This document shows, piece after piece, positions 35,306 to 62,969 of a stretch of DNA of 64,000 nucleotides. The notes below the pieces were generated by a model. That model did not search any database. It had not been told where the DNA came from and saw nothing but the letters and a program-made list of their open reading frames with translations. The translations under genes were made by a program, and so were the position numbers. The DNA comes from a virus (Duplodnaviria > Caudoviricetes): IMG/VR virus record IMGVR_UViG_3300028886_000066, positions 32,001 to 96,000 of that record. One strand, written 5' to 3'. Position 1 is the first letter of the stretch. Every line of letters begins with the position of its first letter.

Positions 35306-36505
35306 ATGGCAACTACAAGAGCAATATCAGCCTACAACGATTACGACTATCGTAAGTACATGGATAATGCCACTTTCCGTAAGATCCTGGATAAGGCTAA
35401 CGACAAATACAACAAGCCAGGACTCGGTTGGCGTATGCTTGGCGACTGGGACCAGCCCAGCGACAGTAAGATTTGGTCGCAGGGTCATCGTACCGTTCCC
35501 ATCATGGCTCGCGCCTCGCTGCTCTCAGCCCACGGACTGAAGCCGATGCGTAACACCTCTGGTTGGAAGTTCTACACTGGCTCGACACCGAAGTTCGGTC
35601 ACGGCTATACCTTCGACGAGGATGACATGTTCCTGCTCCGCGACGTGCGTAACAATACTGGCCGCGACATGCAGGACTTGATTTACGACTCGCTGTTCGT
35701 AAACGCCCAGCAGATTATCGGCGGTATTCATAACGAGCTGTCTCACATGACCTTCGAGCTTGCCTCTACGGGCGGCATTAACGAGGCCAGTGTTGACGGT
35801 GTGAAGTATCAGTTCGCATTCGACTTTGAGGCTAACCAGTATCAGGAGGTTTCTCCCGCTTGGTTCACCGAGTCCGTTGACGGTACTATCACTGCCGAAG
35901 AGACAGGCGTGAACATCATCAAGGACATCCTCGACTTGCAGCGCATGCTCACCGTCAGCCAGAACCGTGACGTGAATGCTTGGCTTGTGAATATTGATAC
36001 GCTGTATCAGATTCTCGACCATCCTTCGGTACTGAAGTCATACCTTGCCAACAAGGATATTCAGACAGGCAACCAGGCTGCTTATATCGCAACGCGCACT
36101 GAACTGGTTCAGTTCCTCTACAACCGCGGTGTATGGCCTATCATCCCTGTTGACTTCAAGTCGGTACATGAGGAAGACGGTAAGCCTGTGGCCGATGCTC
36201 CCGCCTTTGACCCGCGCTACATGATTGCGTTCAACCGCAACGAGCGCATGTTCTCCATCAAGAACACCAATTCGATTTGGAAGGATCGTCAGGCATACGG
36301 CGGTATCTCTCAGAGCACTATATACTCGTTCATCGAGGGACGCATTGCCGCACTGAGCACTTGGTATGAGAACCCGATTCACAACACCGTCGAGTTTGAG
36401 TTGTACGCAGGCCCCGTGTTCAATAATATGCGCAACTGGGCTCGCGTGAAGGTCATCGGTGTGGCGAGTTCTTCGAGTTCATCTGCAAGTTCTTCGAGCG
36501 AGTAA
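35306..36505 (+). CDS. Major capsid protein with C-terminal SSSSSSASSSSE
   Basis: 399 aa; position in head module; PKFGH motif. Confidence 0.8.
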   Translation: MATTRAISAYNDYDYRKYMDNATFRKILDKANDKYNKPGLGWRMLGDWDQPSDSKIWSQGHRTVPIMARASLLSAHGLKPMRNTSGWKFYTGSTPKFGHGYTFDEDDMFLLRDVRNNTGRDMQDLIYDSLFVNAQQIIGGIHNELSHMTFELASTGGINEASVDGVKYQFAFDFEANQYQEVSPAWFTESVDGTITAEETGVNIIKDILDLQRMLTVSQNRDVNAWLVNIDTLYQILDHPSVLKSYLANKDIQTGNQAAYIATRTELVQFLYNRGVWPIIPVDFKSVHEEDGKPVADAPAFDPRYMIAFNRNERMFSIKNTNSIWKDRQAYGGISQSTIYSFIEGRIAALSTWYENPIHNTVEFELYAGPVFNNMRNWARVKVIGVASSSSSSASSSSE

Positions 36506-36524
36506 ACTCTAATCACTTGGAATC

Positions 36525-36929
36525 ATGGCTACATGCACTCACTCCAACGGTATGCTGACCATCAGGAAGTACTTAGGTGGCAAAGTCAGGAATATTAGGA
36601 TTCCTGACGATGCCATTCTGTCGATATGTGCCGATGCAGGCGTAGACCCCGACACTCTATATGCTAAGGCGACTCAGCGTCAGCGAGACCTGTCGCTTGC
36701 GTGGCTCTATGTATGGGTGGCAGGCAGTCCGACGCAGACGGGCGGTTGGACTGAGGAGAGTGCCGACTGGAGGAGTACTGACGGTGGTGAGCGTATGTCT
36801 GCTAGCGTACTCAAACAATACCTTGCTATGGCCAACAAAATCTTCGAGGAATACGACCTGCCTTGTGTGGGTGAGGAGTCTTGGGGATTTGTTGGCCGTG
36901 GCATCCGTAATCCGAGGAGATACTGCTGA
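36525..36929 (+). CDS. Head-tail adaptor (probable)
   Basis: Synteny after MCP. Confidence 0.55.
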   Translation: MATCTHSNGMLTIRKYLGGKVRNIRIPDDAILSICADAGVDPDTLYAKATQRQRDLSLAWLYVWVAGSPTQTGGWTEESADWRSTDGGERMSASVLKQYLAMANKIFEEYDLPCVGEESWGFVGRGIRNPRRYC

Positions 36930-37276
36930 TGTTAGAGAGACCTGATAACCCGCGCTTCCCTCACAGCTGCCGCATTACCCGTGCTGTAGATGAAGACCCG
37001 ATGGTCGATGAGAGCGAAAGCAATCTCATCTATGAGGGAAAGTGTCGAGCCTACGAGAAGAACACCACTTCGGACAAGGGAGACGTCCTGAACTCCTTCA
37101 GGGGTCTGGCTTTGCCTATAGACAGGGAGGGATGGATTCGGTATGGTAAGGTTCCACGCGAGGGCGATGAGGTTGTTGTTGATAGAGGTGGTTACACGGA
37201 ACGCGGACGTGTGGTTGACGTCAATCCCGCGAATTTCGGAGGAACACATTTGATTTGGAAATATGGCAGGCACTAA
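36929..37276 (+). CDS. Head closure protein (probable)
   Basis: Beta-rich; RFPHSC...IYEGKCR; synteny. Confidence 0.55.
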   Translation: MLERPDNPRFPHSCRITRAVDEDPMVDESESNLIYEGKCRAYEKNTTSDKGDVLNSFRGLALPIDREGWIRYGKVPREGDEVVVDRGGYTERGRVVDVNPANFGGTHLIWKYGRH

Positions 37277-37868
37277 TAAGACAATCGTAGAGAAGGCTTT
37301 CAGGGATTTTGAGAAGCGTATGGATCAGCAGGTATTCGGTCAACTCGACAAATACTGCAGGGACATCCTTCGCAAGGCCGTGTGGGAGCGTCAGCATTTC
37401 ACTGGCGGTCACAACTTCACGGGAAACCTTGTCAACTCGATTGTTGTCTGCATGTTCCGCAAGTCAACGGGCAAGAAGTACAAGTACTTTGCCTATGACA
37501 CCATCAAGCTTCCGATACGGCGTGAGCTGTCGGCATTGACATCCCGTGGCAAACGAAGGAAAAACAGGATTATATTCCACCCAGGCAGCAGGTATGGAAG
37601 TCAGGACTGGTCGGGAGAGTGGTCAACGCTCAAGCCCGATAATCTCATTCCTACGGATGAGAGCTGGGGTCAGAACGATGCGGTTCAGTTCGCGAGTATC
37701 TGGTATCCGACAAATACAAACATCGACTTTACGATTTGCGTGGCCTATGCTTCAGAGTATGCGTCCTTCGTCGAACACGAACGCCACACGACAGGTTACA
37801 TTAATACGCTTGACTATGCCGAGCGTATGGCTGTTGAGTATTACGGATTGAAACCCGCAACAAGATAA
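37263..37868 (+). CDS. Neck protein, HK97 gp10-like
   Basis: TGNLVNSI...EYASFVE. Confidence 0.65.
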   Translation: MAGTNKTIVEKAFRDFEKRMDQQVFGQLDKYCRDILRKAVWERQHFTGGHNFTGNLVNSIVVCMFRKSTGKKYKYFAYDTIKLPIRRELSALTSRGKRRKNRIIFHPGSRYGSQDWSGEWSTLKPDNLIPTDESWGQNDAVQFASIWYPTNTNIDFTICVAYASEYASFVEHERHTTGYINTLDYAERMAVEYYGLKPATR

Positions 37869-37872
37869 GGTA

Positions 37873-38286: not shown

Positions 38287-38313
38287 TTTAATAACTATAA
38301 AAACAGTACGATT

Positions 38314-38880
38314 ATGGCAAATATTTTAGCAAGCGAAACCAATAAATTTGTTGGTATCAGCGCACTAAAGGTTGTGAAAGGCGGTTTTGCTGCCGGGTTC
38401 ACACTAGGCGGAAATAGCCTCGTAGAGGTTCCTGTTGCTGAGGACGGTGGCTTCACCTATACTGGTGGCGAGCCTTCCATCGAGCACTACAAGATTCACG
38501 GTCTGTCTGCCGACTGGACGAGCCGCACGACTCCGGGCGAGACGCAGATTAACCTCTTCATTCCGAGTATCACCAGCACTCTGCTGACCTTGTTCGGATT
38601 CTCTGTGACTACCGCAGACTCTGCAAGCGGAATCTCTGCCAATGCAAGCGGTTTTACGTTCCAGGAGAGCGCACTGGCCGTTACTCTCGGTATCGTTGCC
38701 TTCAACGACGAGGGTACCAAGGCGTTCGCCATCAAAGCAGCCAAGCTCTCGGCTACCATCGTATTCGACGAGGCCAACAGTGCAAAGCCTATCGGCATTA
38801 GTCTGACAGGTTTTACCTCTGCTGGTGAGGACGCCGATGCTATGGGTATCTTCGAGATCAGCGGTTCTTCGAGCGAATAA
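38314..38880 (+). CDS. Major tail tube protein ending SGSSSE
   Basis: Synteny; beta-rich 188 aa; followed by terminator. Confidence 0.7.
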   Translation: MANILASETNKFVGISALKVVKGGFAAGFTLGGNSLVEVPVAEDGGFTYTGGEPSIEHYKIHGLSADWTSRTTPGETQINLFIPSITSTLLTLFGFSVTTADSASGISANASGFTFQESALAVTLGIVAFNDEGTKAFAIKAAKLSATIVFDEANSAKPIGISLTGFTSAGEDADAMGIFEISGSSSE

Positions 38881-38900
38881 CTCAATCCATTCTAAACGAT

Positions 38901-38945
38901 GAGCGGTGGCGGTGAGGTTATAGTCACCGTTGCCGCTTTTTGTTT
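38901..38945 (+). terminator. Intrinsic terminator
   Basis: AGCGGTGGCGGTGA...TCACCGTTGCCGCT followed by TTTT. Confidence 0.75.
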
Positions 38946-38971
38946 GGGAAGGATTTTTAATTTTGTGAGGA

Positions 38972-41212
38972 ATGGATATTGACTACGTTGTCCCTATGGT
39001 TTTCGATGATGATGAGCAGTGGCGAAAAGATTATGTCACGGCGCATCATGTGCTGCGTTATGGCGGCGGTAATGTGAGGTATCGGTCGTGGGGAAATGAG
39101 GAACTTTTGATTAGGTGTATCAGAAAATTCATGCCCTTCGTGCGTACCATATATATTATATTGGCGCGGGAGAGTCAGAAGAAGGCGTGGATGGATGGTG
39201 AACATTTCGGAGAAGCGAAAGGCACGGTGAGGGTTGTTTATCATCGTGAGTTTGTGCCTGAGAAGTATTTGCCTTGTTTCAATAGCTGTACGTTGGAGAT
39301 GTTCGTACCGTTTATTGAGGGGTTGTCGGAACACTTCATTTATGGGAATGATGATATGTTCCCCGTGTCTCCGTTGAAAGAGACGGACTTTTTCGTCAAT
39401 GGATTGCCCGTGCAGCATCTTAGTGAGAAGGCTTTCCCTGATAATCCGAGCATATTCCATAAGAAATGCAAGAACCAGCAGAAGATGATTGCCTCTTCTC
39501 TGGGCATAGAGATTGGTGACACCCACTTACATAACGGGCATAATCTCGCACCTATGCTCAGGAGTTCATGTCTGGAGGTAAGGGAGATATTTGATAAGGA
39601 AATAACTGACGGTATAACTCCGTACCGTTCAGAGACGAGTTATAACCAATATCTTTATGTGTTGTGGCAGCATTTTACGGGAAGATATGTTGACGGCAGG
39701 GCGAAGAGTACCTACGTTTCGGTAAAAGAACCAGTCTCGCGTATCAGAGAGGTTATATGTAAATCAAAAGGGGTTGTTTGTGTGAATGACAATGAGCGTG
39801 CTGGCGACATAAGTGAACACGCCGCGCTTGTAAGAAGAATCCTTAACGAGAAATTGATGAGTAAGAAAGAATCTGATTATAGAATATGGGTCACGTACCA
39901 CCGTGACGAGTTGGTATCTCAGTATGGCTTATTGGATGATGACCACCATAAGTTGTTTGCCAGCCACAAAGATATTGAAGGTAAGAACATCAATCATCTG
40001 AATCCTGTATATTCAGAGATGGTGACGATGTGGTATGTGTGGAAGAATAATATCAAGAGTGAATATATTGGCTTTGAACATTACCGACGCCACTTGAATA
40101 TCCGCAGGATGCCGCGAAAAGGCGAATGTCAGGTGTTCAGGGCGATCAACTTCGGCAAACAGACGATTTACGAGCAGTATGCAAAATGTCACAATGTGAA
40201 GGATATTGACGTGATGCTTGGCATACTTGGGGGAAGGTTTGGTAAGTCTAATCCGTATGCAAGACATATCACAGAAGACAGTGTTCTGATTGCCAACTGC
40301 ACGTTCCTGATGAAATGGACTGATTTCAAGAAGTTGTGCGAGTTCATGTTTCCACTGTTGGAAGATTTCGCTGTTTTGTCAGGAATCAGGAACAACTCTT
40401 TAGAGGAATGGAATAATAAAGCTCAAAAGGATTTTGGTAATAATAGGACGGCATACCAGATGCGCGTAGTGTCTTTTTTGGCCGAGCGACTTATTTCCGC
40501 GTGGATAAATACGCATATGAAGTGGTGGAATGGTATTGATGTCGCTATCGTTCACTACAACACCCCTGAACTGACAGATGCGGCCATACGCTCTTTGAAT
40601 AAGTTTACGCCGGGATGTCGGGTGACTATCTTTGACAATAGCAACGAAAAACCTTTTGTCAACAGCTACAAGAATGTCTCTGTCATCGACAATACAAAAG
40701 GGCAGATAATCGACTTCGAAGAAATACTGAGCCATTATCCTGACAAGGAACTTAGCGAAAGAAACAAGAGTGATTTTGGTAGTGCCAAACACTGCAAAAG
40801 TGTTGACATATTGATGGACTACATACCTGACGGTTTTCTACTGATGGATTCTGACGTTCTTGTCACGAATGATGTTCGTAAGTTAGTACGTTATGACGTA
40901 GCCGTGTCAGGCATGGAGCATACGAAGGACGGCGTTACGCTGTTTCAGCCTTTTCTCTGTTGGATTAATGTGCCGATGCTCCGTGTGAATGACATTCGCT
41001 ATTTTAACGGCGACAAGATGTGGGCTTTGAGCCGTATATTCCCGAATAACAGATATGACACAGGTGCGTGGTTGTTTGAGGAAGTACGGAACAAGAACCT
41101 TGAATGGCTTGCGGTCGATATTTGGCGGTTTATCATTCACTTCGGTCATGGTAGCTGGCGAGATAAGAACGGCAGGGCATGGTTAGAGGAACACAAGGAT
41201 TTGTATGAGTAA
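38972..41212 (+). CDS. Tri-domain Stealth hexose-1-phosphate transferase, DUF4422 and GT-A (GT2-like) glycosyltransferase
   Basis: Stealth CR1 IDYVVPMV, CR2 YLPCFNS...GLSEHFIYGNDDMF, CR4 CVND. DUF4422 NHLNPVYSE...YIGFEHYRR. GT VAIVHYNT...FDNS...MDSD. Confidence 0.85.
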   Translation: MDIDYVVPMVFDDDEQWRKDYVTAHHVLRYGGGNVRYRSWGNEELLIRCIRKFMPFVRTIYIILARESQKKAWMDGEHFGEAKGTVRVVYHREFVPEKYLPCFNSCTLEMFVPFIEGLSEHFIYGNDDMFPVSPLKETDFFVNGLPVQHLSEKAFPDNPSIFHKKCKNQQKMIASSLGIEIGDTHLHNGHNLAPMLRSSCLEVREIFDKEITDGITPYRSETSYNQYLYVLWQHFTGRYVDGRAKSTYVSVKEPVSRIREVICKSKGVVCVNDNERAGDISEHAALVRRILNEKLMSKKESDYRIWVTYHRDELVSQYGLLDDDHHKLFASHKDIEGKNINHLNPVYSEMVTMWYVWKNNIKSEYIGFEHYRRHLNIRRMPRKGECQVFRAINFGKQTIYEQYAKCHNVKDIDVMLGILGGRFGKSNPYARHITEDSVLIANCTFLMKWTDFKKLCEFMFPLLEDFAVLSGIRNNSLEEWNNKAQKDFGNNRTAYQMRVVSFLAERLISAWINTHMKWWNGIDVAIVHYNTPELTDAAIRSLNKFTPGCRVTIFDNSNEKPFVNSYKNVSVIDNTKGQIIDFEEILSHYPDKELSERNKSDFGSAKHCKSVDILMDYIPDGFLLMDSDVLVTNDVRKLVRYDVAVSGMEHTKDGVTLFQPFLCWINVPMLRVNDIRYFNGDKMWALSRIFPNNRYDTGAWLFEEVRNKNLEWLAVDIWRFIIHFGHGSWRDKNGRAWLEEHKDLYE

Positions 41213-41232
41213 CAAAAAAAAAGTTGGATAGA

Positions 41233-43885: not shown

Positions 43886-44518
43886 TTACTGATTGACAAG
43901 AGATTTTTCGTAGTCGGATAGGTACATCCAACGTCTTTTTCTTACAGGTCTGCCTGTGTGTTTGATTGAGTCTATTATAGACGAACGTCCAAACCCATCC
44001 TTTCCTGCATCAGACATAGACTTATAATGCGTTACTGTTCCGTCTTTCGATATACATACCACTGGCTTCCATAGGGTAGTCATTTGCTTCCCTAAATGTG
44101 ATTCAGATTGCCGCTTTCTTGCAATTTGGTTCATGTTGTTTTCGGAGTGTGTACACCATCTGAGGTTAGACACAACGTTGTTCAGTCCATTTCCATCTAT
44201 ATGGTCAATTTCTGTCCTGTTGTTTGGATTTGGTATAAATGCAAAAGCAACAATTCTATGAACAAGAAATCGCTTCCGCTTGTTAAACTCGCTCAAATAC
44301 AGCATATAATATCTCTGTTTGCGACGTTTGATAACGGTTGGTTTAAGTAGTTTGGGGTATGTTACGGCAGTGTTATGACCATCAGACCTTGGTCTTGATG
44401 TAAACTTTCTAACCATCCTGCCAAAAGATGAAACCATGTAAGATTCCTCGTACCCAACTACATCTCGCCACTCTTCTCCTTCGAGTCTTATAGACTCAAT
44501 AAATTCTTTGTTTGTCAT
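43886..44518 (-). CDS. NUMOD4-HNH homing endonuclease
   Basis: EEWRDVVGYE; VHRIVAFAFIPNP; IDHIDGNGLNN; NLRWC. Confidence 0.92.
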   Translation of the reverse strand: MTNKEFIESIRLEGEEWRDVVGYEESYMVSSFGRMVRKFTSRPRSDGHNTAVTYPKLLKPTVIKRRKQRYYMLYLSEFNKRKRFLVHRIVAFAFIPNPNNRTEIDHIDGNGLNNVVSNLRWCTHSENNMNQIARKRQSESHLGKQMTTLWKPVVCISKDGTVTHYKSMSDAGKDGFGRSSIIDSIKHTGRPVRKRRWMYLSDYEKSLVNQ

Positions 44519-44664
44519 TTTTCTTTCTGAGTTAAATAACTTCTGAGATTTTAAAAAAGGGAAGAGCCTCAGAAATACTCTTGTCAGTCGGTGGCCAAAC
44601 CAACCTATCCCGATGCAAAGGTACAAATAAATTAGTGAATAAACAAAATTTAAAGTAAAAAACA

Positions 44665-45207
44665 ATGGATTTCAATGCCTTGGGAGCGGGTCAGCCGTTC
44701 TACGTTTTACAGAAAAGTGAGAAGCCTGTTTTACAGGTAGGTGTGGTAAAGTCAAAGAGCGAGCCCAAATCGCCCTATCAGACGAACCAGCCTGCGATAT
44801 TCAATGGTCTTGCCTCAATGCAGGTCCAGAACCTCGTAGTCGATATGGTGGTTACGCTCAACGGTGCTGACGTGCCTTTCAGCAACCTTCCAATGAATGC
44901 CGAGACGTCATCATACAACAATGGACAGACGTTTGTCAGTTGCAGCCGTGAGGCGATGCTTCAAGGCGTGGACTCGATGATACAGGCGTCAAGGAAGGCT
45001 CTTGAGCAGGTAGGTTATCACGAGTCCGTCCTTTCTGAAGGTGAGAAGATGCTTGAAACGCTTAATCCCCGCTACGCCGAGGAGAAGCAGCGTGACCGTA
45101 GTATCAAGTCCTTGGAGGAGCGTCAGGCGGCTACCGACAGCAAGCTCGACAAGATTCTCTCGCGTCTCGACGAGTTCTTTGCGCCATCCAAGAAACAGAA
45201 TCCTTAA
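44665..45207 (+). CDS. Hypothetical protein with C-terminal coiled coil
   Basis: Continues the cassette after the HNH gene. Confidence 0.8.
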   Translation: MDFNALGAGQPFYVLQKSEKPVLQVGVVKSKSEPKSPYQTNQPAIFNGLASMQVQNLVVDMVVTLNGADVPFSNLPMNAETSSYNNGQTFVSCSREAMLQGVDSMIQASRKALEQVGYHESVLSEGEKMLETLNPRYAEEKQRDRSIKSLEERQAATDSKLDKILSRLDEFFAPSKKQNP

Positions 45208-52600: not shown

Positions 52601-54401
52601 CATGATAGACAAAAATGCCTATGACAAGGCTATGGGCATTATCGCAACGAGCAAAGACGATGCGATTTGGCAAAAGTCTGCTACATATATCGACCTTATG
52701 AATCATTCGCTCGCAATGACTAAGCCAGAGATTGATGCAGCAGCCAGGGCACAGGAAGAAAACTTGAATGCGAGACTGACAGCTGGAACTATAAAAGCAG
52801 AAGATTTCTATCAAGAAATAGTTAAACTCCGCAAGATAACAACCGAATGGAATACCGAGGGTTTCCTTGGTAGTAAAGGGGCGTTTGGTTCTTTTGTCAG
52901 CGGCGGGAATCAAGGATTGATGGACTACTATGACAGGAGGAGAAATAGGGCATGGCGTGACTATTCTAACGCTGACGTAAAAGATAGTCCAGAAGCACAG
53001 GAGAAACTTATAGAAGCGCAACATTACGACAAGTTGTATCAGTCTCTTGCCAAGTTGACTGACAGTGCAGAAGACGTTGTCAATGCGTTCCAGACGCTGC
53101 AGGGTGGTGTAGACCTTCTTGGGAATCTTTTTGACTCTTTAGGAATGGGCAGTGCTGCAACTGCCATGAGTGACGCGGGTGGTCTGTTGAGCGGGGCACT
53201 GGGAGGGGCATCGTCATTAAGTGCGCTTGGCCCTTATGGTATGGCGGCTGGTGCTGCACTTGGTCTTGCTACCAGTATTGCCGAGTTAAATGACAAGGGA
53301 ATACAGCGAGAGATTGAAGCATTACAGGATAACGTTGAAGCTCTCGAAGCCAATACCAACTCCATCCGTGCAGCCCGCGAACGTACTTTGGGATATGATG
53401 CTGGAGTGCTGAGACGTGCGATGTCTGGACTTTACGAGGACACGACGAAGAATATTAATTTCTTCGGGAAAGACCTTACTGTAACCTCTGCAGCTAAAAA
53501 AACTATGCAGGAGTACTACAATGCGGGTACAAATAAAACTGGCTACGCAGCAGAACTTGAAAACCTTAAAGAGATGCGCGAAAACTATCTGGAGATGTAT
53601 GACAAGGAAAACAGCAAGAAGAAAACATCGAATAGTGCCCTTGAAGAATACAAGCAGAAGATGGCCGAGCTTGACGAGCAGATAATGTACTTTGTTGAAG
53701 ACCTCGCCAATGAGTTGTGGGGTATTGACTTCAAGGCTTGGGCAAGTCAAATCAGCGACGCTTTGTGGACTGCCTTTGAAAACGGTGAGAGTGCCCTTGA
53801 TGCCTTCCATGATGCCGCAAAAGACATCATTTCAGATGTTGCCAAGCGGATGATGAACATACATCTTATTGAACCTGTGTTCCAGCAGTTGGAAGAGCGG
53901 CTATTTGGGAAGATGGAGAATGGCAAGCGTGTGGGCGGTGCGGCATACAACTACGACACAGGGGAGTTTAATGAGAAGGAGACACTGAAAATTCTTGGAG
54001 AGGCTTTCGGAGAAAATGGAGAGTTCGCAAAGGTTATCAGTGCTGCCGAGGACTTCTATAACATGGCAAAGACGGTCACTGGATTTGACTTTGGGGAAGA
54101 CAGCACTGGTAGCCGCTCATCATCTGCAATCAGCAAGACTATAACCGAGGAACAATCGAACCTACTGATAGCACTTGTAAATACTATCAGAGCTGACGTG
54201 TCTGTCAACCGGACGATGATAGCACAGTACTTCCCGCTGTACTATCAGGCGCTTACGAGCGGTAACGAGACTCTTGGCTCTATAGCGATGAACACCCGTG
54301 CCATTATGGAGAGCAATGCAACGATAGCTCAGAGGGTTTCCAACCTTGATGACAGTATCAATGGACTGAAAAACAAGGTGTGGCGTTTGCCTGTGTCGTA
54401 G
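46689..54401 (+). CDS. Tape measure protein (2570 aa)
   Basis: Very long helical ORF; tape-measure core LALTSPF...QLSAYG...GGMFFNM. Confidence 0.92.
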   Translation: MANTLMFEVGVKEAGNQLSDLEKRLKELVAKYGTMKIAVEIGNLDTFINALKTIGNGEQLKPLLDRIQTLQNRLGALGDKGQYFDMLRGNAAAAAKEVEKAEKYLVAMQKTGNTGFIASAKDSLQRAQVEATRANEMLASATERFAKEEERVARETNNTKARIDALGTSVTELHAKLGSGININFDTSKFSAWASEVQGVSLAVKELVEQLKNITPLDGLKTITTSAQSATNALKYTTEEIERQKNTVEKYEALLASRTRWVTNQREALSSAYYGLNIDGPKRLLDIEKERAQVLDQIKKKEKDLSDERQAYLKGRLSGISAPEKAVLRSMEKAYQFTVKMNAEAQSFKANIGKDAIYSLRSELQNLNVSNLSSTMHEVKDYISYLKEELKRLGSNSSIDTSGLQTLIQKAEEAYQAYKKITNEHNKALGKYAEASGHPSFGYMGAVSGHNQLMGLYAKNESLSEESRSLKYHLDKETESLEAQAKASQNLAQAKQKLNEMQAQNAQSAEKVAQATQQLNQAEQKIAETQQKGAQQGNLFDPQKFTSLQEAIDKIISEINRLKEAFSGIGKIEGLSQMTTDINGLMHNVNNLKDVLSTLSSAVKIDQSSPLIKKLTADAEAAEKKIQELTEKLNAMSAAQNKVAESVAKSGKSETQVTDSQTAMFNRYRKLMADIHNIKREIVDIQRSDGGGGALGAQLGQYFSALNRVRNEIAKITSAPSLAEAISRGMSSEMLSKLSSSLAAIKSEFKEVISGAKAFNKEFDKGSAQSEARIRKLGMAFNELKNYMKKNGGSEEMRKLQSEIQVAIQKMRQLMNAGDYSGAIRVFERMNSTIRQTSQAIKEYERSVLGAAASNSHLSASEQQLANSIKHSTDSMRSQSQVLGDLKTLATQYLGVWGAQGFLRNVIEIGGQLEQQRLSIGAILGDMAAGQHLFDQIKELALTSPFGVMELDKDTKQLSAYGFKQSELFDMTKRLADISAGAGTEVSRLALALGHVRSEGALTGYTLRQFAMNNIPMLQKLSERLTKLEGQIVSTAEIRKRVSKKEIGYEDVIAVIKDLTNEGGMFFNMQETMADAVNAKFKNLKDSMDIMYGEMAEGGIGSALKWVAETLMSLTRNWEKTARVIGYGTAAFVAYRLAITSANTQLLTYGSTLGATSKTLNAKAIALGVNTAAVKRLTADEVDELVTLKLVTREQLLNAVATKKLTVDQAELAAATFNVTRAELTSIASKGKLGIASAGLSLRLKGLALSLRGVGTALKTMLLNPVGIALMAITAGFEVFMRWKQKNSEIEESIERLGQKGSEGYKNIAATMEKYSGKDGKMSESEYSTAISDIIDTLKNYAPNIHNIQEEAQSIDNLAERYMYLRDELESTRNAYADLERTKAFASNANEATGNILNDTFTENVEEYIGKVQDLDKAEQELLQHRVTLDKTIGELERKTAFKRRMDSNGNALPLIEQLKYIKNTDWNKAFSPMLYSNSSGAAEAFSDFGVAIKNMSDTMHNEVLPDLQNFANRLDNQYSGVFGKNWKENADNIKTAWMAVVSEIDKVPGMTDSVKRELLEKIFNETWKMNIDFSTGEVTESLTGWRKEMQDWLDENGLKFRIGFNDSREDIYKKAKAAQEAAQTEMNNAGKVLISIGFKLDNLPKELPSPLQTPWNQKNLEDYAEQKVIDDTWEKFQKHFGADWQTKQDKTNAKKNNGRNDDKEAKRLREVVKLYKDAFDWYNKYEKQVGKGSALSKVQEQFKPLFDQFSDQFKQTLSLDSIPLYKENLESLLAEAEKLYQDPKHKNSYMVEAIKQIRDAINNVDFEELGNKQEEFLSKTQIQLDNLTRSWETFNSVRDATGNIELAVQLSGAGYQAGTNINLADALRKKIEGDFAAAGAIAIPFDINFSDEEIFNRISAAMPEKTQEQIKGIVEEYKKWRDLQRDVVKTDIQNFGKLLGSIVDYKSEIQKLNDEYNKQKEMLDALYALGMIDKNAYDKAMGIIATSKDDAIWQKSATYIDLMNHSLAMTKPEIDAAARAQEENLNARLTAGTIKAEDFYQEIVKLRKITTEWNTEGFLGSKGAFGSFVSGGNQGLMDYYDRRRNRAWRDYSNADVKDSPEAQEKLIEAQHYDKLYQSLAKLTDSAEDVVNAFQTLQGGVDLLGNLFDSLGMGSAATAMSDAGGLLSGALGGASSLSALGPYGMAAGAALGLATSIAELNDKGIQREIEALQDNVEALEANTNSIRAARERTLGYDAGVLRRAMSGLYEDTTKNINFFGKDLTVTSAAKKTMQEYYNAGTNKTGYAAELENLKEMRENYLEMYDKENSKKKTSNSALEEYKQKMAELDEQIMYFVEDLANELWGIDFKAWASQISDALWTAFENGESALDAFHDAAKDIISDVAKRMMNIHLIEPVFQQLEERLFGKMENGKRVGGAAYNYDTGEFNEKETLKILGEAFGENGEFAKVISAAEDFYNMAKTVTGFDFGEDSTGSRSSSAISKTITEEQSNLLIALVNTIRADVSVNRTMIAQYFPLYYQALTSGNETLGSIAMNTRAIMESNATIAQRVSNLDDSINGLKNKVWRLPVS

Positions 54402-55220: not shown

Positions 55221-55715
55221 ATGGATTACAAGAAACTTCTCATCCAACAGCAGACGGTGTCTGGCTCTACGTACACCAATGTAGGCGTTGCAGTTGACAC
55301 GCAGACAGCGTTTAATGTTGTCTGTCAGGAATTTCCGTTCAAGTACTTGCCAGAGATAAAAGATTTGGCGAGCGAAGATTGGACTGACGAGGACGGCGAA
55401 GACGTCTTTATGCCCACTGAAGGCTTAAAATTCAAAGCTTATGACTTGGATGCTACATTCCTGTATGTTGGCACACAAGAGAGTATGGCAAATGATTTGA
55501 GCCAATTTATCAATTTCCTTTACGGGAGAAATCAGTATGGTTCGCCTTGGCTTGCTGTCTATGACGAGTACACGAAAACTGGCAGACGAGGTATTTACGT
55601 GAAAGAGGTCGGTAATGAGCTGATAGCATACGACAGCGCGAATGTAGAAGTGATAGGACAGTTTAAGGTTAAATTCCGTGTGACTGACCCGATAACAAAT
55701 GTGGTACTTAGTTGA
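55221..55715 (+). CDS. Distal tail protein-like
   Basis: After TMP; DWTDEDGED...FRVTDP. Confidence 0.6.
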   Translation: MDYKKLLIQQQTVSGSTYTNVGVAVDTQTAFNVVCQEFPFKYLPEIKDLASEDWTDEDGEDVFMPTEGLKFKAYDLDATFLYVGTQESMANDLSQFINFLYGRNQYGSPWLAVYDEYTKTGRRGIYVKEVGNELIAYDSANVEVIGQFKVKFRVTDPITNVVLS

Positions 55716-55723
55716 TAAATGAT

Positions 55724-58700
55724 ATGAGCAAGAAGGTAGACATAAAGCGTGGCAGTACGGTTGTTGCCGTCGGCGAGGGGCTGGAGTACCACGGCGAGTG
55801 GATGCAGCACGGGTATGTGACGGTGACGGTGAAGTCGGCGGTGAAGATTGACTTCCAAGTCGGCGACTACGTGGAGTACCGTGGTGAGCGGTTCTACCTG
55901 TGGAGCGACGAGAACTTGAAGAAGCAGGCGCGGAGCGGCAGTCACGGTGAGGCGTTCGTGTATGAGAACCTGAAGCTGATGGACGCTACGGCGGCACTGG
56001 AGCAGGTGTCGATGCACGACTTCGTGCTGGGCGGCTCTGGGAATGCGGAGTCGTATTCGTCGCTGGGACGGTTTTCGTTCTTCGGCGGGTCGGTGGATGA
56101 CCTCGCGGACAGGATTCAGGCGAACTTACTGAGGCAGGTGCCTGCTATCGGCGGGACGGAGTTTGCGTTTCGGGTGTTTACGCCGAGCCTTTCGAGGACG
56201 TTGCAGCGACTTGGCGGCGGTGACGATAGTAGCGACGGTGGTGATAGTAGCGATGCTGACGCATCGGACACGGTGACTGATGACTGGGAGGCGTATTATG
56301 ACGGGGATGAGGCAACGGGGAAAAGCGATGTGACGGTTGGCATCAGCGATGAGACGCTGTGGGGTGCGCTGGCACGTTGCTATAATGACTTTGAGCTGCC
56401 GTTCTATGTTCATGGTACGGATATTGTCATCGGCGGCAAGGCGGTGGAGGTCGGGCAGATGTTTGCGTATGGCAAGGGTAACGGCTTGAAGGATATTGAG
56501 CGGATGGCCGACCAGGAGCAGCGGATAGTGACGCGGCTGTTTGCGTATGGAAGTACGGAGAACATGCCGCTGAACTACTACGGAAACGTGTTCAAGACGG
56601 CCTACGTGACGGGCACTGCGGACATTTACAACAGTAGCTACTACTTCCTGAAAACGGGCATCCTGTTCGAGGCGGTGAAGGACGCGCTGGGATGGAGCGC
56701 TGAGGCATGGCGGCAGGTCGTGATGATAGGCAACTACGCAAAGGTGCCCATTACGGTCAGCATATCGACGGCCTTAGACCCCAACAACGGTTATAGCGAC
56801 AGCGGGGCGTATATATGCGCCTATGAAGAGAGCGAGCACACCTACCTTGCGCTGCTGACGACGCAGGCGGTGACGAGCCATGTAACGGCACAGACGAAGG
56901 TGTATATATTGGAGGGAGCTGACTTGAACAAATGGCCTTCATCGCTGACAGAGACGGCGGCGGGTTATGCTGCCGGTATGGCGATACAGAATCTGATGTT
57001 GCCCGGATTCCCGACGCAGACGCTTGCGGACTGGGTTTCGCATCGGCATGAGTATATGGCTGACGATGGGAAGAAAAATGCTTGGCTGGCGCGGAAGGTG
57101 AACTATGATTTTTCCGAAGATGCGAAGAATCCTTGGATTCAGTCGAAGGCTGGCGTGGCGAAGTACGGCGTGAGAGAAGGGGAGGTTTACTTTGACGGTT
57201 CGAACGACCGCGACGAGATTAAACCGACGATTGAGAACACGTCGTATGGGTACGCGAAGGGCGTTACTGGTATCAGCGATAACGGATGGGTGACGGAAGG
57301 CGGTAACTTCAAGCTGGCGGTGTATGATGACCAGACGAAGTTCTGGGACGCTGTTTTCAAGACGCGCACGGGTGACAAGATGCCGATAACGATGACATCG
57401 GGCTATCACAACGGACGGGAGTTCGAGGTGAGCAAGGTGACGTATAACGAGGGGAGTGATTTTGCGGTGCTTGAGATTGCGCGTGTGAAGGACGAGCGTG
57501 AGCGTTTTGTGCCGAACACCGAGGAATTGATTGCCTTGGACGATACGTTTATCGCGACGGGGATTCAGTTGCCCGACACCTATATAGCCGAGGCTTCGGA
57601 GGTGCTGTTTGATGCGGCACTGGATGCGCTGGACGAGGCTGACCATGCTACCTATACGCACACGCCACACATCGATGAGATTTTCATGGCGAGGGAGCGG
57701 GATGAAGCGGCGGCTAACGAAACGGTGAGCCTGCATGACACGATAAGGCCGGGTATGGTACTGGAGTGGCAGGACGTGGAGCTTGGCAACGTTAGTTCGG
57801 TAATTGACTCGCTGACGATTAAGGACGACGGCAATAACGGCATCCCGACGTATGAGGTAGTGCTGAGGAACGAGAAGGAGAAGACCTTGGCGCAGATGAT
57901 TGGCGCGGAGATTAAGAAGAGCAGTAGCGGCGGCAGTGGACGTGGGGAGAAGCCCACGGCACCGTCAGCGGCGAGCATTATTGAGGCGGCAAGCGGTGCG
58001 TTCCTGAGCAAGACGGAAGATGATACGGCGCAGGGGACTATCACGTTTGCTGCGGGTGTGGCTTTCGGGGACGGGAGTACTGGCATAGACGATAACGGCG
58101 ACGCCACCTTGCATGACGTGACGGCAAGCGGCGACCTTGAAGTTACGGGGGATGCGGAAGTCGGGGGCGACCTTGATGTGACAGGCACGACCAACGGAAC
58201 TGACGCGATATTCGAGAATTTGACGGTGACGAAGGCGGCGCACTTCTTCAAGCTGATTATCGACGAGGTGAAGGCGACGCAGGGACAGGTGATTATCACG
58301 GCGGCGAACGCGAAGCTGGATAAGGTGGTGGAAGTGACTGGCGGTTGGAAGTGCTACTTCCGTTCTTCGGACGCTGACGGTAACGAGATAAGCAACACCT
58401 TTGCCGCGAATGACCTTGTGCTGTGTCAGACGTTTAACGCGAAGAAAGGCGTAAGCGAACAAGTTGACAACAGATTCTACTGGCGCAAGTGTACGGCTGT
58501 TGGCTCTGAATCCCAAACTGTAGACGGGCAGGCGGTTGATTACCATTATATTGTCCTTTCTTCGTCGGTCGAGGATAGTAATTCTAACGCAGACCCGCAG
58601 GCAGGCGACGAAGTGGTACAGCTTGGAAATGACACGGACACCACCCGTCGAGCTGCTATCATCATTTCTGCATATAACAACACGTATTTAGATCCTGAGA

Positions 58701-61700
58701 TAGCCGCTCCGTCTATTGTTCAGTATGACGGCATCGATAAGTTTAGCCTTTCAGGGTTCAGGAAGAATGTCATTTCGAAGAATCTGAATAGTTTCACGGG
58801 AACGTTCTATGTCAGTGGAAACACGACCGTGACGGACTTGATAGAAGAGATTGAGCTTACTCCTGGGCCGCAAGGTGAGAAGGGAGATAAGGGTGATAAA
58901 GGTGATAAAGGTGATGACGGCGACGATGGCTCGACGATACGCAGTGTACAAGTGTTCAAGTTGTGTGCCAACCAGCCAGTAACGCCGACTGGCAGCGACG
59001 TGCCTCCGACTGGATGGAGTCTGTCGCCAACAGAACTTACGGACTTTTACGACGGTACTGGTGTTCACGCAGGATGGAGAGAAGTAAGCGGTAATCAACA
59101 GAATAGTATCTTTAAGAAGGAACGTTACTGGTTCACGACCAATGATGCCAATCAGGTGCTTACGATAGAGTTGATGGCTTCGTCGGAAAATACCTATGAC
59201 TATATTCAGGTCGGTGCGCTCGATACGTCTGTAGATTCCCGTCCCAGCCGTGTTGCCGAAAGGAGTGCAACAGGTACTTATGGAACAGTTACTACAGTAG
59301 AGATAACCGTTGCCACTGTTGGAACTCACTTTGTCGATATAGTCTATACGAAAGACGGTTCACAGTACAGCGGCGAGGACAAGGGTTGGTATCGTGCCAC
59401 CCTTGGCGGTGTTGTCATGAACACGCAATATGAGTGGACTTCATTCGCCACCATTGTTGACGGAGAGCTTTCTGGAACATGGAGCACCCCATACCGTTGG
59501 AGCCCGATAGACGGAACGAATGGTAAGGATGCCCACGACGCGAACCCGAATATCTTGCTACGGACGGTGTTTGAGAGCGGTTTGGATGCCGTGAAGGAGG
59601 CTTGGACGGCACCAGAGAATGGAGGCTGGGACAATATCAACATACCTGCCTCGCCGATGATAGGCGGTAGGAATTGCGTTGAGATTGATGCAAGCGAGGC
59701 TGGTTCATACGTTGACCTTAGACAGAACGTGGTAGCAAGATTACAGCCAAGCACATGGTACACGCTATCGTTTTACTGCTATGCCGACGGTCTTTTCCAT
59801 ACCTATATCTATTCGGGCGACGGCAGCCACCCGAGCGTAGACACAAGCGCAGGCTGCTATGTTGACGGCGTTTTCAATAGCAGCATAGGTACTGACGGTG
59901 CTCATCAATGGGCGGCAGAAGCAGACGGGGCACGGCATACGTTCACGTTCAAGACGGCAAGCAGCTTCACTACCAACAGTGCGGAGATAATCTTCCGTGC
60001 GCTGACGGGCGTAACCTTGGACGTTTGTATGCCTAAGTTGGAAACGGGCAAGGATGCTACGCCGTATATGCCCAACGAGCAGGACTTGCAGGGCAAGAAC
60101 GGACAACAAGGTCAGAATGGTACCGACGCCGAGTTTTACAAGTTAGTTCCCCTGAACGAGGCCGCAGTTGTGACCATCAACGGCACGTTGGGCGTGGTGG
60201 CTCAGTATAACATTGCGCACATCGTTGGTTCGACGAGCGAACTGATTACACCGGATGACGACGGCTATCATATACAGATTATCCCCAATGTATCGACGGG
60301 CGTTTCCATTAGCTACACGTATGACAGCATTCTTAAAATCGTGGAGTACAAAAATACACAGTACATGACGAACTGGCACACGGCGGCAGCAAACGCAAGG
60401 CCGTCGTACTTCACGGTGAAGTTAGTGGACGGGAATAATACGCCCGTCAGCGGTGAAGAGAGGCAGATTGCCGTGACGTTCGCCGTGGATGCTTCGTTTG
60501 CCATCAACAGCAAGACGGGCGAGATAGAGCTGAAGGCGCAAGGGAATGCCGACAACATTGCCAAGATTGAAATGACGGTGGGGCAGCAAAGCATTGTCAA
60601 TATGGAGTACGTAACCATTGACTATAGCTACTCTGACAGTCAGGATGCGAAAAGTACGGCATGGGAAAAGGGTTATTGGAATAACTATGGCAACTATGTG
60701 AGTGCTGACAATTGTATCTGTTCAGCACAGAACCCATACTTCATCGGGGAAACTAATGGTTTCGTCGTTAACGGATATCATGCCGCGTTCGCTATTTTAG
60801 AGATTGACAACACTGGTGTTACGCCGAAGCAGTATGTTTTAAGATACACCGTTCCTCAGAACTACACTGTCAAGGCGTATATCATGTCGTATGTCTATAA
60901 GAACAATTCTTGGGCGCGCGACAAACGAGTATCGGAAGTCAACGGCAACGGCGGCATGGTTATTATTACACCAACAACGGGAAAGATACGCTTCAAGGTA
61001 TTTTTTGAGGCTACAGGAAAGGATATTGGCGCAAACGCTACGGCCATCTCCGAAGCCTTGTCAGAGTTACAGCCACACTTCGGTTCGATAACGCTCAGCA
61101 ATTCGCTGATTCAGCAGACTGGTGCACAAATACGTTTCCGTGTCGAAGAATGCGGTATCGACATTACCAACAAGAAGATACTTGCCAAGACCGACAACTT
61201 CGAGATTCAGAACATAAGCGGACAGAAGACGTTCGGCATCGACGATGACGGAAACCTTGAAACACTTGGGAATGCGAGTATCGGTGGAACTGTTAGGGCT
61301 AAGAACTTTTTCAGGAGTCTTGCCGTAGTGTCAGAATATAGCAGCAGTTTACAGCCGAGAATCGTTGTCATCGACATCAATGGCAATCAGAATAAATGGG
61401 TGTACTTCAAGAACAACGTGGTATCTGGCGGTGTAACGATATTCGCCCAGCATAGTTACCATACTTTTGAAGAGATTGCCGAAATTGACCCTGACTATTC
61501 CGTAGATGATGAGGCGGGCGATTGTGTGGTATGCACATACGACGCAGAAGAGGTATTTGTCACTTACAATGCAAATGGAAATCCAAACGAACAGCGAGTA
61601 GTTCTTCCGAGGAGCTGCGACTTTGTAGGAAAGGTCGTAACGGTACGAAACGTAATCGGAGCAGCCGTGGTCAATGCATTTTCCGTAAAGGTCATGGCTT

Positions 61701-61849
61701 GTGATGACAAAATGCCAAATACTTACCTTACGATGAACAACTACACGATAGTGTCAGGCTCAAATAACACATACAAGTCTATAAGCAGCGGAAAGAACGG
61801 AGTGTTCTATGCTACGGCAGACAGGTGGGAATTTTTAGGCGAATTTTAA
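55724..61849 (+). CDS. Tail tip/hub and fibre protein (~2040 aa)
   Basis: YGKGNGL...TRLFAYGSTENMP hub motif; collagen-like GxxGDK repeats; CBM-like KLETG module. Confidence 0.8.
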   Translation: MSKKVDIKRGSTVVAVGEGLEYHGEWMQHGYVTVTVKSAVKIDFQVGDYVEYRGERFYLWSDENLKKQARSGSHGEAFVYENLKLMDATAALEQVSMHDFVLGGSGNAESYSSLGRFSFFGGSVDDLADRIQANLLRQVPAIGGTEFAFRVFTPSLSRTLQRLGGGDDSSDGGDSSDADASDTVTDDWEAYYDGDEATGKSDVTVGISDETLWGALARCYNDFELPFYVHGTDIVIGGKAVEVGQMFAYGKGNGLKDIERMADQEQRIVTRLFAYGSTENMPLNYYGNVFKTAYVTGTADIYNSSYYFLKTGILFEAVKDALGWSAEAWRQVVMIGNYAKVPITVSISTALDPNNGYSDSGAYICAYEESEHTYLALLTTQAVTSHVTAQTKVYILEGADLNKWPSSLTETAAGYAAGMAIQNLMLPGFPTQTLADWVSHRHEYMADDGKKNAWLARKVNYDFSEDAKNPWIQSKAGVAKYGVREGEVYFDGSNDRDEIKPTIENTSYGYAKGVTGISDNGWVTEGGNFKLAVYDDQTKFWDAVFKTRTGDKMPITMTSGYHNGREFEVSKVTYNEGSDFAVLEIARVKDERERFVPNTEELIALDDTFIATGIQLPDTYIAEASEVLFDAALDALDEADHATYTHTPHIDEIFMARERDEAAANETVSLHDTIRPGMVLEWQDVELGNVSSVIDSLTIKDDGNNGIPTYEVVLRNEKEKTLAQMIGAEIKKSSSGGSGRGEKPTAPSAASIIEAASGAFLSKTEDDTAQGTITFAAGVAFGDGSTGIDDNGDATLHDVTASGDLEVTGDAEVGGDLDVTGTTNGTDAIFENLTVTKAAHFFKLIIDEVKATQGQVIITAANAKLDKVVEVTGGWKCYFRSSDADGNEISNTFAANDLVLCQTFNAKKGVSEQVDNRFYWRKCTAVGSESQTVDGQAVDYHYIVLSSSVEDSNSNADPQAGDEVVQLGNDTDTTRRAAIIISAYNNTYLDPEIAAPSIVQYDGIDKFSLSGFRKNVISKNLNSFTGTFYVSGNTTVTDLIEEIELTPGPQGEKGDKGDKGDKGDDGDDGSTIRSVQVFKLCANQPVTPTGSDVPPTGWSLSPTELTDFYDGTGVHAGWREVSGNQQNSIFKKERYWFTTNDANQVLTIELMASSENTYDYIQVGALDTSVDSRPSRVAERSATGTYGTVTTVEITVATVGTHFVDIVYTKDGSQYSGEDKGWYRATLGGVVMNTQYEWTSFATIVDGELSGTWSTPYRWSPIDGTNGKDAHDANPNILLRTVFESGLDAVKEAWTAPENGGWDNINIPASPMIGGRNCVEIDASEAGSYVDLRQNVVARLQPSTWYTLSFYCYADGLFHTYIYSGDGSHPSVDTSAGCYVDGVFNSSIGTDGAHQWAAEADGARHTFTFKTASSFTTNSAEIIFRALTGVTLDVCMPKLETGKDATPYMPNEQDLQGKNGQQGQNGTDAEFYKLVPLNEAAVVTINGTLGVVAQYNIAHIVGSTSELITPDDDGYHIQIIPNVSTGVSISYTYDSILKIVEYKNTQYMTNWHTAAANARPSYFTVKLVDGNNTPVSGEERQIAVTFAVDASFAINSKTGEIELKAQGNADNIAKIEMTVGQQSIVNMEYVTIDYSYSDSQDAKSTAWEKGYWNNYGNYVSADNCICSAQNPYFIGETNGFVVNGYHAAFAILEIDNTGVTPKQYVLRYTVPQNYTVKAYIMSYVYKNNSWARDKRVSEVNGNGGMVIITPTTGKIRFKVFFEATGKDIGANATAISEALSELQPHFGSITLSNSLIQQTGAQIRFRVEECGIDITNKKILAKTDNFEIQNISGQKTFGIDDDGNLETLGNASIGGTVRAKNFFRSLAVVSEYSSSLQPRIVVIDINGNQNKWVYFKNNVVSGGVTIFAQHSYHTFEEIAEIDPDYSVDDEAGDCVVCTYDAEEVFVTYNANGNPNEQRVVLPRSCDFVGKVVTVRNVIGAAVVNAFSVKVMACDDKMPNTYLTMNNYTIVSGSNNTYKSISSGKNGVFYATADRWEFLGEF
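58865..58930 (+). repeat. Collagen-like Gly-X-Y repeat
   Basis: GPQGEKGDKGDKGDKGDDGDDG. Confidence 0.8.
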
Positions 61850-61865
61850 ACAAAACAAGTAAGAT

Positions 61866-62969
61866 ATGGGATGCGAAAGGTATAATAACTACGGTCACGG
61901 CGAACTACTGAGCTGGGTAGAGGGAAACGACGTTTTCCTGAAGGCGAGGGTGTATGAGAAGGTGGTGACGGAGCAGGATTCCTCTTCTTCGGAGGGGGAT
62001 GAACCTGCGGGAAATGCCGCAGGAACGGTTGAAGAGCGGGCGGTGGACTTGACGGCGTTCGATGACGTTGAGGTGGAACTGGTGAAGTCATTTGGAACAC
62101 GGACGGACATCGAGACGGCGATTGACCAGACGGAAGATAACTGCCTTGTGGTGCACTGTCCGCATACGTTGGAGAGCGGCGAGTATGCGCTGGAGATTCG
62201 GCTGATGAAGGACGGACTGCAAGCGCGTTCGTTCGACGTTCAGTTCACCGTGGTTCAGACGGACTGTAAGGCACAGACGACGTTCGAGGTGATTGACGGG
62301 TGTCGGTCGGCTTCGCTGAGGGTGACGTTACAGGTCGTCAGCCAGGCATTGGTACGCGGCAAGTCGGCGTATGAGCTTTGGAAGGAGCTGCCGGGGAATG
62401 AGGACAAGGGATTGCAGGATTTCATCGACGAGGTGCTGGACTTGAATACGATTGCAACAAGGGCGGCGACTGCTGCCGAGACGGCTGAGCAGGCGGCAGT
62501 CAACGCGAACGAGAAGGCAGCACTTGCTAACGAGAAAGCGGGGCTGGCGAATGAGAAGGCGGCTTTGGCTGACGAGAAGGCTGGACTTGCCGAAGAAAAG
62601 GCAGGGCTGGCGAATGAGAAAGCCGCATTGGCAGCAGAGAAAGCAGGCTTGGCAAACGAGAAAGCCGGGTTGGCGGCATCGGCTGCGGTGCTGGCCAACG
62701 AGAAGGCAGCACTTGCGAATGAAAAAGCGGGGCTGGCTGAACAGAAGGCTACAGAGGCTGGGAACGTGAACGCTTCGCTATCAGGAACGATACTGACGGT
62801 GACGAACAAATACGGAGAGTCGGAGAGCGTCGACGTGAAAGACCAGATGATGCTCTTTGAGGTGGATGACGATATGCAGCTATCGGTGACGAAGGCTGAC
62901 GACTCGACGGTGGTGTTCGGACTGGAGAACGGCTACCTGACGGTGGACGATACAGACAACGGTAATTAA
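61866..62969 (+). CDS. Baseplate/fibre-associated protein with coiled-coil repeat
   Basis: GKSAYELW motif; internal DSSSSE; ANEKAGL heptads. Confidence 0.65.
   Translation: MGCERYNNYGHGELLSWVEGNDVFLKARVYEKVVTEQDSSSSEGDEPAGNAAGTVEERAVDLTAFDDVEVELVKSFGTRTDIETAIDQTEDNCLVVHCPHTLESGEYALEIRLMKDGLQARSFDVQFTVVQTDCKAQTTFEVIDGCRSASLRVTLQVVSQALVRGKSAYELWKELPGNEDKGLQDFIDEVLDLNTIATRAATAAETAEQAAVNANEKAALANEKAGLANEKAALADEKAGLAEEKAGLANEKAALAAEKAGLANEKAGLAASAAVLANEKAALANEKAGLAEQKATEAGNVNASLSGTILTVTNKYGESESVDVKDQMMLFEVDDDMQLSVTKADDSTVVFGLENGYLTVDDTDNGN
62505..62750 (+). repeat. 21-nt tandem repeat encoding A(N/D/E)EKA(G/A)L heptads
   Basis: About 11 degenerate copies. Confidence 0.85.

Follow-up and report, generated by a model that had tools for sequence, protein, structure and literature searches.

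The DNA considered here (the window, 64,000 nucleotides (nt) in length) comprises bases 32001-96000 of IMGVR_UViG_3300028886_000066, a 104.7-kb IMG/VR virus record rated complete, and all coordinates given below are window positions. Its plus-strand structural operon contains, in order, a scaffold-like gene, the major capsid protein gene, four small connector genes, the gene encoding a tail tube protein of 188 amino acids (aa) and, directly after this, a gene (38972-41212, plus strand) encoding a 746-aa three-domain enzyme. Both the capsid and the tube protein end in a short serine-rich tail, or tag, and it is the relationship between these tags and the neighbouring enzyme, whose first domain is a Stealth hexose-1-phosphate transferase, that concerns us here. 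The features of the locus are as follows:

35306-36505, plus strand: gene for the 399-aa major capsid protein (match to phrog_29, major head protein, at E 2.6e-9)
36467-36502, plus strand: capsid tag SSSSSSASSSSE, with an internal 11-mer duplication, at the protein C-terminus
38314-38880, plus strand: gene for the 188-aa tail tube (major tail) protein (assigned by AlphaFold model and Foldseek)
38860-38877, plus strand: tube C-terminal tag SGSSSE, the protein ending in EISGSSSE
38901-38938, plus strand: terminator-like hairpin after the tube gene, with a 15-bp stem and a T run, kept in transferase-lacking relatives
38958-38965, plus strand: TAATTTTG box, 6 nt upstream of the transferase ATG, inside a segment absent from the closest relative, L047
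38972-39856, plus strand: enzyme domain 1, Stealth hexose-1-phosphate transferase (Pfam Stealth_CR2, E 3.6e-25)
39869-40531, plus strand: enzyme domain 2, DUF4422 (Pfam PF14393, E 2.3e-23)
40529-41212, plus strand: enzyme domain 3, a glycosyltransferase (GT) of GT-A fold, GT8-like (assigned from a structure model)

The two tagged proteins are the two major virion proteins. The phrog_29 match spans residues 90-312 of the capsid protein, placing it in the major head protein family, as expected of an HK97-fold capsid protein, and the gene is flanked by the scaffold-like gene upstream and by head-tail connector genes downstream; tblastn also detects distant similarity to Parabacteroides phage proteins. 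The AlphaFold model of the tube protein has a predicted local distance difference test score (pLDDT) of 77, with the last four residues disordered, and its best Foldseek matches in the PDB are the tail tube proteins of Bxb1, SPR, YSD1, lambda (gpV) and chi, with template modelling (TM) scores of 0.35-0.55. In the operon the tube gene follows the head-tail connector genes and precedes a tape-measure-like ORF, and fold and position together identify its product as a siphophage tail tube protein.

Among the 138 non-overlapping open reading frames (ORFs) of the complete 104.7-kb genome, in which serine makes up 6.4% of residues, only the capsid and the tube have a serine-rich C-terminus; internal SSS and SSSS runs, of which the 61866 fibre-like protein described below has one, are near background (~13 SSS runs observed versus ~8 expected). 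The capsid ORF terminates in GVASSSSSSASSSSE, with AGTTCTTCGAG present twice within its tail, and the 13-mer GTTCTTCGAGCGA is common to both tags, starting at 36489 in the capsid gene and at 38864 in the tube gene. These features, along with two further serine motifs discussed below (a DSSSSE sequence and an insert in a hub-like protein), had been described in a first-pass annotation and all are present in the sequence at the positions given here.

That annotation went on to propose a portable acceptor tag copied onto surface-exposed virion proteins. In a null model that redraws synonymous codons according to the codon usage of this genome, the P value is ~0.005 for a shared run of at least 13 bases, which favours copying, and ~0.025 for an internal repeat of at least 11 bases in the capsid tail. 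However, the tags of related phages differ in their codons, and the similarity seen after the stop codon is ancestral flank. We regard DNA-level copying of tags between genes as weakly supported; given the differing codons and the ancestral flank, a better fit than a portable cassette is that short serine runs have repeatedly grown de novo and been lost. Copying of a tag along with its 3' flank can be ruled out, since the post-stop similarity is also found in the untagged relative L047. Across the relatives' tags serine is retained as codons turn over, including switches between TCN and AGY codons, and there is no special codon pattern in the tags, identical neighbouring codons making up 16 of 103 pairs, approximately the number expected by chance. 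Tags in different phages comprise a run of 3-14 serines, usually with a final E or D.

The Stealth domain of the enzyme is readily recognised, with a Stealth_CR2 (PF11380) score of 88.7 bits against a cut-off of 39.4 (82-108 bits in relatives). The crystallised fragment of Mycobacterium tuberculosis CpsY (8j2n, 320 residues long) can be aligned over its residues 2-279 with enzyme residues 2-273 (E 1.6e-17), which also align, more weakly, with GNPTAB. Four residues, E109, N126, D128 and R219, are aligned and identical with CpsY E305, N322, D324 and R419, and are invariant in eight phage homologues, such that the Stealth catalytic core is present. In CpsY, mutation of any of these residues reduces or abolishes activity (PMC10668966). 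The second domain, DUF4422 (enzyme residues 329-514), scores 83.7 bits with PF14393 against a cut-off of 25 and matches the WbbM chain 6u4b (E 1.6e-8); no glf gene is found in this phage.

Domain 3 (enzyme residues 520-746) finds no match in Pfam, NCBIfam or PDB sequence searches, either by itself or as a profile, and does not belong to GT8 (PF01501) by sequence, although PF01501 is found on a few of its homologues. Its structure model (pLDDT 95, predicted TM score 0.92) is matched by Foldseek to LARGE1, LgtC, GlyE, glycogenin and WbbM (E 5e-6 to 1e-4), with a probability of 1.00 for the first four of these, and D107 and D109, the aspartates of its D-x-D motif, show no variation among 32 homologues, as befits a GT-A fold. 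As modelled, domain 3 resembles GT8 at the level of fold only, and an initial 'GT2' label was replaced by GT8-like GT-A on these structural grounds. The enzyme has no PHROG family match. It contains no hydrophobic segment (maximum Kyte-Doolittle mean 1.23 over 19 residues) and, in light of this, the matched CpsY residues and the invariant D-x-D, looks to be both active and cytoplasmic. The TAATTTTG box ahead of the gene matches the Bacteroidota -7 promoter motif TAnnTTTG.

Tails and transferase across related phages

To set these features in context, around 50 related rumen phage lineages, collected from IMG/VR and from JGI metagenomes, were compared, the relatives deriving from rumen and bovine metagenomes; the counts given below are of distinct protein sequences (variants) rather than genomes. 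The enzyme gene is present in some of these phages and missing from others, and where present it always occupies the same precise position, flanked by the tube gene and the homologue of p41224. In transferase-negative phages, the tube gene and the p41224 homologue are joined directly or are separated by another small insert. The junction (window 38880-41223) is an insertion hot spot: a 408-aa reverse-strand gene lies there in L049 and a 98-aa ORF in L074.

Sequence from L047, the closest relative, is 92-94% identical to the window at the nt level and collinear with it, apart from three separate breaks. At the first of these, after capsid residue K383, YSHYGE replaces the serine tail; at the second, the tube protein ends in EIGS where the protein encoded in the window ends in ISGSSSE; at the third, the 2.3-kb insertion holding the transferase is missing. 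Conserved sequence lies between the breaks. Across the relatives as a whole, tags and transferase are distributed as follows:

Capsid tag: 9 of 10 transferase-positive variants tagged, 0 of 8 transferase-negative variants tagged (Fisher test, 4e-4)
Tube serine-rich tail: 12 of 13 transferase-positive variants tagged, 0 of 19 transferase-negative variants tagged

The first-pass annotation had suggested that tags and transferase should co-occur, and that tags equally present in relatives without the transferase would argue against a connection; the co-occurrence is borne out for both C-terminal tags, and no tagged capsid or tube is found in any of the ~19 transferase-negative lineages.

Shared ancestry was taken into account using trees built without the tail columns. 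On these, the enzyme changes state at least seven times on the tube tree and at least five times on the capsid tree, with at least four changes per tree forced by well-supported branches, and the tag follows the enzyme in every independent pair in which the tag differs. In addition, a second capsid backbone, 37-40% identical to the first, is also tagged (in L079, L087, L096 and L097), whilst its transferase-negative members are untagged. Taken together, these comparisons support the view that the capsid and tube serine tags act as a functional unit with the transferase.

Candidate modification of the virion and rival explanations

What might such a unit do? We consider it likely that the serine tails are C-terminal acceptors for phosphodiester-containing O-glycans made in the cytoplasm by the phage enzyme. 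The tails would presumably project outward on the two most abundant proteins of the virion. Late in infection, the soluble three-domain enzyme would be expressed from its own transcription unit and would build a phosphodiester-containing O-linked glycan on the tag serines, so that head and tail would be coated in negatively charged sugar. The sugar used would be galactofuranose (Galf) if DUF4422 acts as it does in WbbM; in another phage, L089, DUF4422 adjoins a gene for uridine diphosphate (UDP)-galactopyranose mutase. Candidate benefits of the coat include shielding of capsid and tube from proteases, antibodies or defence sensors, colloidal stability and adhesion.

The first step could take either of two forms. 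In one, Stealth would place sugar-1-phosphate directly on serine; in the other, a glycosyltransferase domain would start the chain and Stealth would add sugar-1-phosphate to that first sugar. The second is favoured by the fact that known Stealth enzymes act on sugar acceptors. Stealth is, nonetheless, the most constant component found next to serine tags, and it is conceivable, if doubtful, that it transfers sugar-1-phosphate directly to the tag serines and that, with the two glycosyltransferase domains, it produces a phosphodiester-linked repeat and hence a 'proteophosphoglycan' particle. To our knowledge, direct transfer of this kind would be the first protein serine phosphoglycosylation outside eukaryotes. 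If it does take place, the enzyme and its peptide tag would form a simple pair with which to define the reaction. Stealth proteins were proposed in 2005 as candidate enzymes for the serine phosphoglycosylation seen in protists (PMC1285062).

Several points weigh against an O-glycan on the tags. The case for it is one of comparative genomics throughout, and the known acceptors of Stealth enzymes are sugar hydroxyls, not serine (PMC7729866). A sign test on the four well-supported pairs can reach a minimum p of 0.125, above 0.05. Two lineages with Stealth only, L112 and L114/L115/L119, have no serine tail on capsid or tube; L005 and L116/L117 carry a tag on the tube alone; and the transferase-positive L079 has merely a weak tube tail (VSDGSN). 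Many of the contigs are fragments, so that further transferases may be present elsewhere in those genomes, and in one complete provirus, G012, the three domains are dispersed. It cannot be claimed that Stealth alone is sufficient, as most 'Stealth-only' contigs are fragments and G012 holds the other two domains elsewhere.

Of the alternatives to an O-glycan, the one that survives best, whilst still unlikely, is that the transferase is a lysogenic-conversion moron that modifies the capsule or a surface polysaccharide of the host, perhaps through the addition of hexose-1-phosphate branches, as a guard against superinfection, the serine tails being unrelated hydrophilic ends. Capsule synthesis is the best-known setting of Stealth enzymes (PMC1285062), and several features of the phages would suit such a role: the transferase gene is preceded by a terminator and a promoter-like box of its own, as is seen in morons; two related contigs are classed as proviruses; the two Stealth-only lineages are untagged; and in Prevotellaceae and Bacteroidales contigs the transferase genes lie among non-structural genes. 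What a change to the host surface leaves unexplained, however, is why tails on two or three virion proteins should track the gene over at least four to seven independent switches and on two unrelated capsid backbones. Nor does linkage explain this covariation, since 2.2 kb of 94%-identical sequence separates the capsid tag from the insertion.

Less probable again is that the tails are unmodified low-complexity ends, whether flexible spacers, solubility tags or the products of neutral slippage, and that their association with the transferase reflects shared ancestry or recombination modules. The tags are indeed short, variable in length and marked by local duplication, phage genomes are mosaic, and the phylogenetically corrected test is underpowered. 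Unmodified ends of this sort would not be expected, however, to be confined to two of 138 ORFs, and to the two major virion proteins at that, to be missing from the capsids and tubes of all ~19 transferase-negative lineages, to keep serine through codon turnover or to recur in distant phages with the same enzyme domains. As for phosphorylation of S-x-E tails by a phage CotH/Fam20C-like kinase or by a host kinase, giving a phosphoserine patch in place of a glycan, most tags do end in S-S-S-E/D, in keeping with the S-x-E preference of Fam20C-type kinases, but we think this very improbable: a CotH match in a tail protein downstream of the window scores 12.5 bits against a cut-off of 23.8 and was not recovered in a Pfam scan (hmmscan) of the region, an acidic residue is lacking from some tags, which end in SS or SSN, and a kinase would not account for covariation with the transferase.

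If the proposed O-glycans are confirmed, they would bear on the persistence of phages in the gut, through shielding from proteases, antibodies or defence sensors or through adhesion, and could yield a compact tagging tool for protein glyco-engineering. The system consists of one soluble enzyme and a short peptide tag, with natural tag-minus and enzyme-minus controls available at 92-94% nt identity, and is a candidate for studying the poorly understood reaction of serine phosphoglycosylation.

Wider family, other serine motifs and gene layout

A scan with the Stealth-domain alignment identified ~16 further phage lineages, most of which have serine-tailed proteins of capsid size and tube size just upstream. 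Amongst these phages the enzyme domains are shuffled, split or dispersed. The virion proteins that carry tags also vary. The window encodes a further tail protein that is untagged here but whose homologues are serine-tagged in five more distant transferase-positive phages, ending in SESSSS (L020), TSSSSD (L098), SSSSSS (L105), SSSSSSSD (L110) and NPSSSS (L103):

55221-55715, plus strand: tail protein, 164 aa, ending in NVVLS (phrog_6305, E 7e-6)

By its sequence, the homologue of this protein would be the third tagged virion protein of the wider family. In L103, a 149-aa protein encoded directly after the capsid gene (L103:3729-4178) ends in ESSSSSSSSVSDSSEG and may represent a fourth class.

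The cassettes themselves are diverse. L089, a 114-kb contig from a bovine metagenome, has a cassette (6719-12276) encoding Stealth, GT-A, a 794-aa GT92/GT11/DUF4422 protein and UDP-galactopyranose mutase (Glf), with serine-tailed proteins ~6 kb upstream of it that end in STSSSSD and SATSE; apart from the transferases, none of its ORFs has a BLAST match to the proteins of the window. L022, a complete 39-kb phage, has DUF4422 only and S/T-rich tails of a different style. In the split cassette of L020, the DUF4422/GT-A and Stealth genes are separated by a 286-aa gene (11332-12192) whose product has a phosphoribosyltransferase-like domain, though its PF00156 match (E 6.5e-5) falls below the cut-off. 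L126 and L128, contigs of Prevotellaceae and Bacteroidales metagenome-assembled genomes (MAGs), encode homologues of Stealth, GT-A and DUF4422 with ~44% identity, and here the genes sit among small non-structural phage-like genes and not beside a tube gene, implying that the cassette moves between modules. No relatives of the tube protein were found in reference bacterial genomes. An alternative genetic code, considered for L021, proved unnecessary, as the actual capsid and tube of that phage are tagged.

Two other serine motifs in the window had been put forward in the first-pass annotation as instances of the same tag:

61977-61994, plus strand: DSSSSE motif of the 61866 fibre-like protein, at residues 38-43 in a variable acidic loop near the N-terminus
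56222-56290, plus strand: acidic low-complexity insert, beginning DDSSDGGDSSDADASD, in a hub/tail protein, not correlated with the transferase

Neither finds support as an acceptor tag. The DSSSSE motif is non-terminal and its loop is variable, being absent in the transferase-negative L042 and T/E-rich in L043, whose 20-kb fragment shows no Stealth gene. The insert in the 2045-aa hub-like protein (55712-61849), in which DDSSDGGDSSD begins at residue 171, is likewise non-terminal, and it is missing alike from a transferase-negative relative (L124) and a transferase-positive one (L125). The 61866 protein also contains, at residues ~195-300 (62400-62760), a long run of near-identical ANEKAAL/ANEKAGL heptad-like repeats that is probably a coiled-coil stalk; its homologues are 481-675 aa in length and the length of the repeat varies.

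On its 3' side the enzyme gene is followed by two small genes, an inserted module, a 2570-aa ORF and the genes for the 164-aa tail protein, the 2045-aa hub-like protein and the 61866 fibre-like protein. At the other end of the operon lies the scaffold-like gene:

34663-35289, plus strand: scaffold-like gene, preceding the capsid gene

The 2570-aa ORF (46689-54401) is tape-measure-like, with weak matches to PHROG tape-measure families, and would imply an unusually long tail if it is indeed the tape measure. The terminase large subunit ORF (30866-33700, minus strand) is 944 aa long; its Terminase_6N match is limited to residues 449-706, the surplus length hinting at an inserted element. The structural region also contains two HNH/NUMOD homing-endonuclease-like genes (27872-29020 and 43886-44665, both on the minus strand), and the composition is anomalous at 20001-22000, with an AT skew of +0.35 and a GC content of 0.53 compared with ~0.38-0.40 in neighbouring intervals. 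There are no tRNA genes in the window. The host probably belongs to the Bacteroidota, as is weakly indicated by the occurrence of Stealth relatives in MAG contigs of Prevotellaceae and Bacteroidales, by the TAnnTTTG-type box and by the distant similarity of the capsid to Parabacteroides phage proteins.

Comparison with known systems

Like the known Stealth enzymes, which include CpsY, the capsule polymerases of Neisseria meningitidis serogroups A and X and GNPTAB, domain 1 of the phage enzyme keeps the conserved regions and the four CpsY residues. The acceptors of those enzymes are sugars of capsules or N-glycans, whereas the linked partner here is a protein serine tail, and the domain here is fused to two glycosyltransferase domains and encoded in a phage structural operon. 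No link between Stealth and phage virions was found in the literature searched.

Serine-rich acceptors are also a feature of two other types of system. In the glycosylation of serine-rich repeat (SRR) adhesins, GtfA/B act first, followed by a GlyE-type GT8 enzyme, and domain 3 is structurally close to GlyE. No GtfA/B homologue was seen in this phage, however, and an SRR adhesin has SxSx repeats extending over hundreds of residues and leaves the cell via an accessory Sec system, whereas the acceptors proposed here are terminal tags of 3-14 residues on virion proteins assembled in the cytoplasm. Dictyostelium (with N-acetylglucosamine-1-phosphate on serine, GlcNAc-1-P-Ser) and Leishmania (with mannose-1-phosphate on serine, Man-1-P-Ser, in its proteophosphoglycans) likewise use serine-rich acceptor stretches, by means of enzymes that had not been identified as of 2005 (PMC1285062). 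These systems are eukaryotic and operate in the secretory pathway, and the direct Ser-O-P link that characterises them is just one of the two options envisaged for the phage.

The remaining comparison is with the mycobacteriophages. In the only experimental study of phage virion glycosylation known to us, which deals with the mycobacteriophages Che8, Corndog and Myrna, Freeman and colleagues are said to have described in 2023 (in Cell Host Microbe 31:1216, cited in PMC11256854) O-glycans on the C-termini of the capsid and major tail proteins of Che8, made by phage enzymes, and reportedly saw little sign of virion glycosylation beyond actinobacteriophages. We know of no report of virion sugar modification other than in mycobacteriophages. 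In Che8, gp6 (capsid) ends in KTGS and gp11 (major tail) in SDGS, the two thus sharing a terminal GS. The rumen phage, judged from its genes, has the same combination of a phage-encoded transferase and a C-terminal motif shared by capsid and tail tube, and by analogy the two systems share a logic, with differences in phage and host group, tag chemistry, enzyme class and gene placement. The hosts of mycobacteriophages are Actinomycetota, whereas the phage described here comes from the rumen and probably infects Bacteroidota. Its tag is a run of serines, usually closed by E or D, and its enzyme gene lies directly after the tube gene, whereas those of the mycobacteriophages lie at the far end of the genome; some of its relatives also tag a third tail protein. 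A further difference is the Stealth phosphotransferase in the enzyme set, which predicts a phosphodiester-containing glycan. These comparisons point to a mycobacteriophage-like layout, with a different class of enzyme, in a large set of rumen phages that probably infect Bacteroidota and for which phosphate-linked glycans are predicted.

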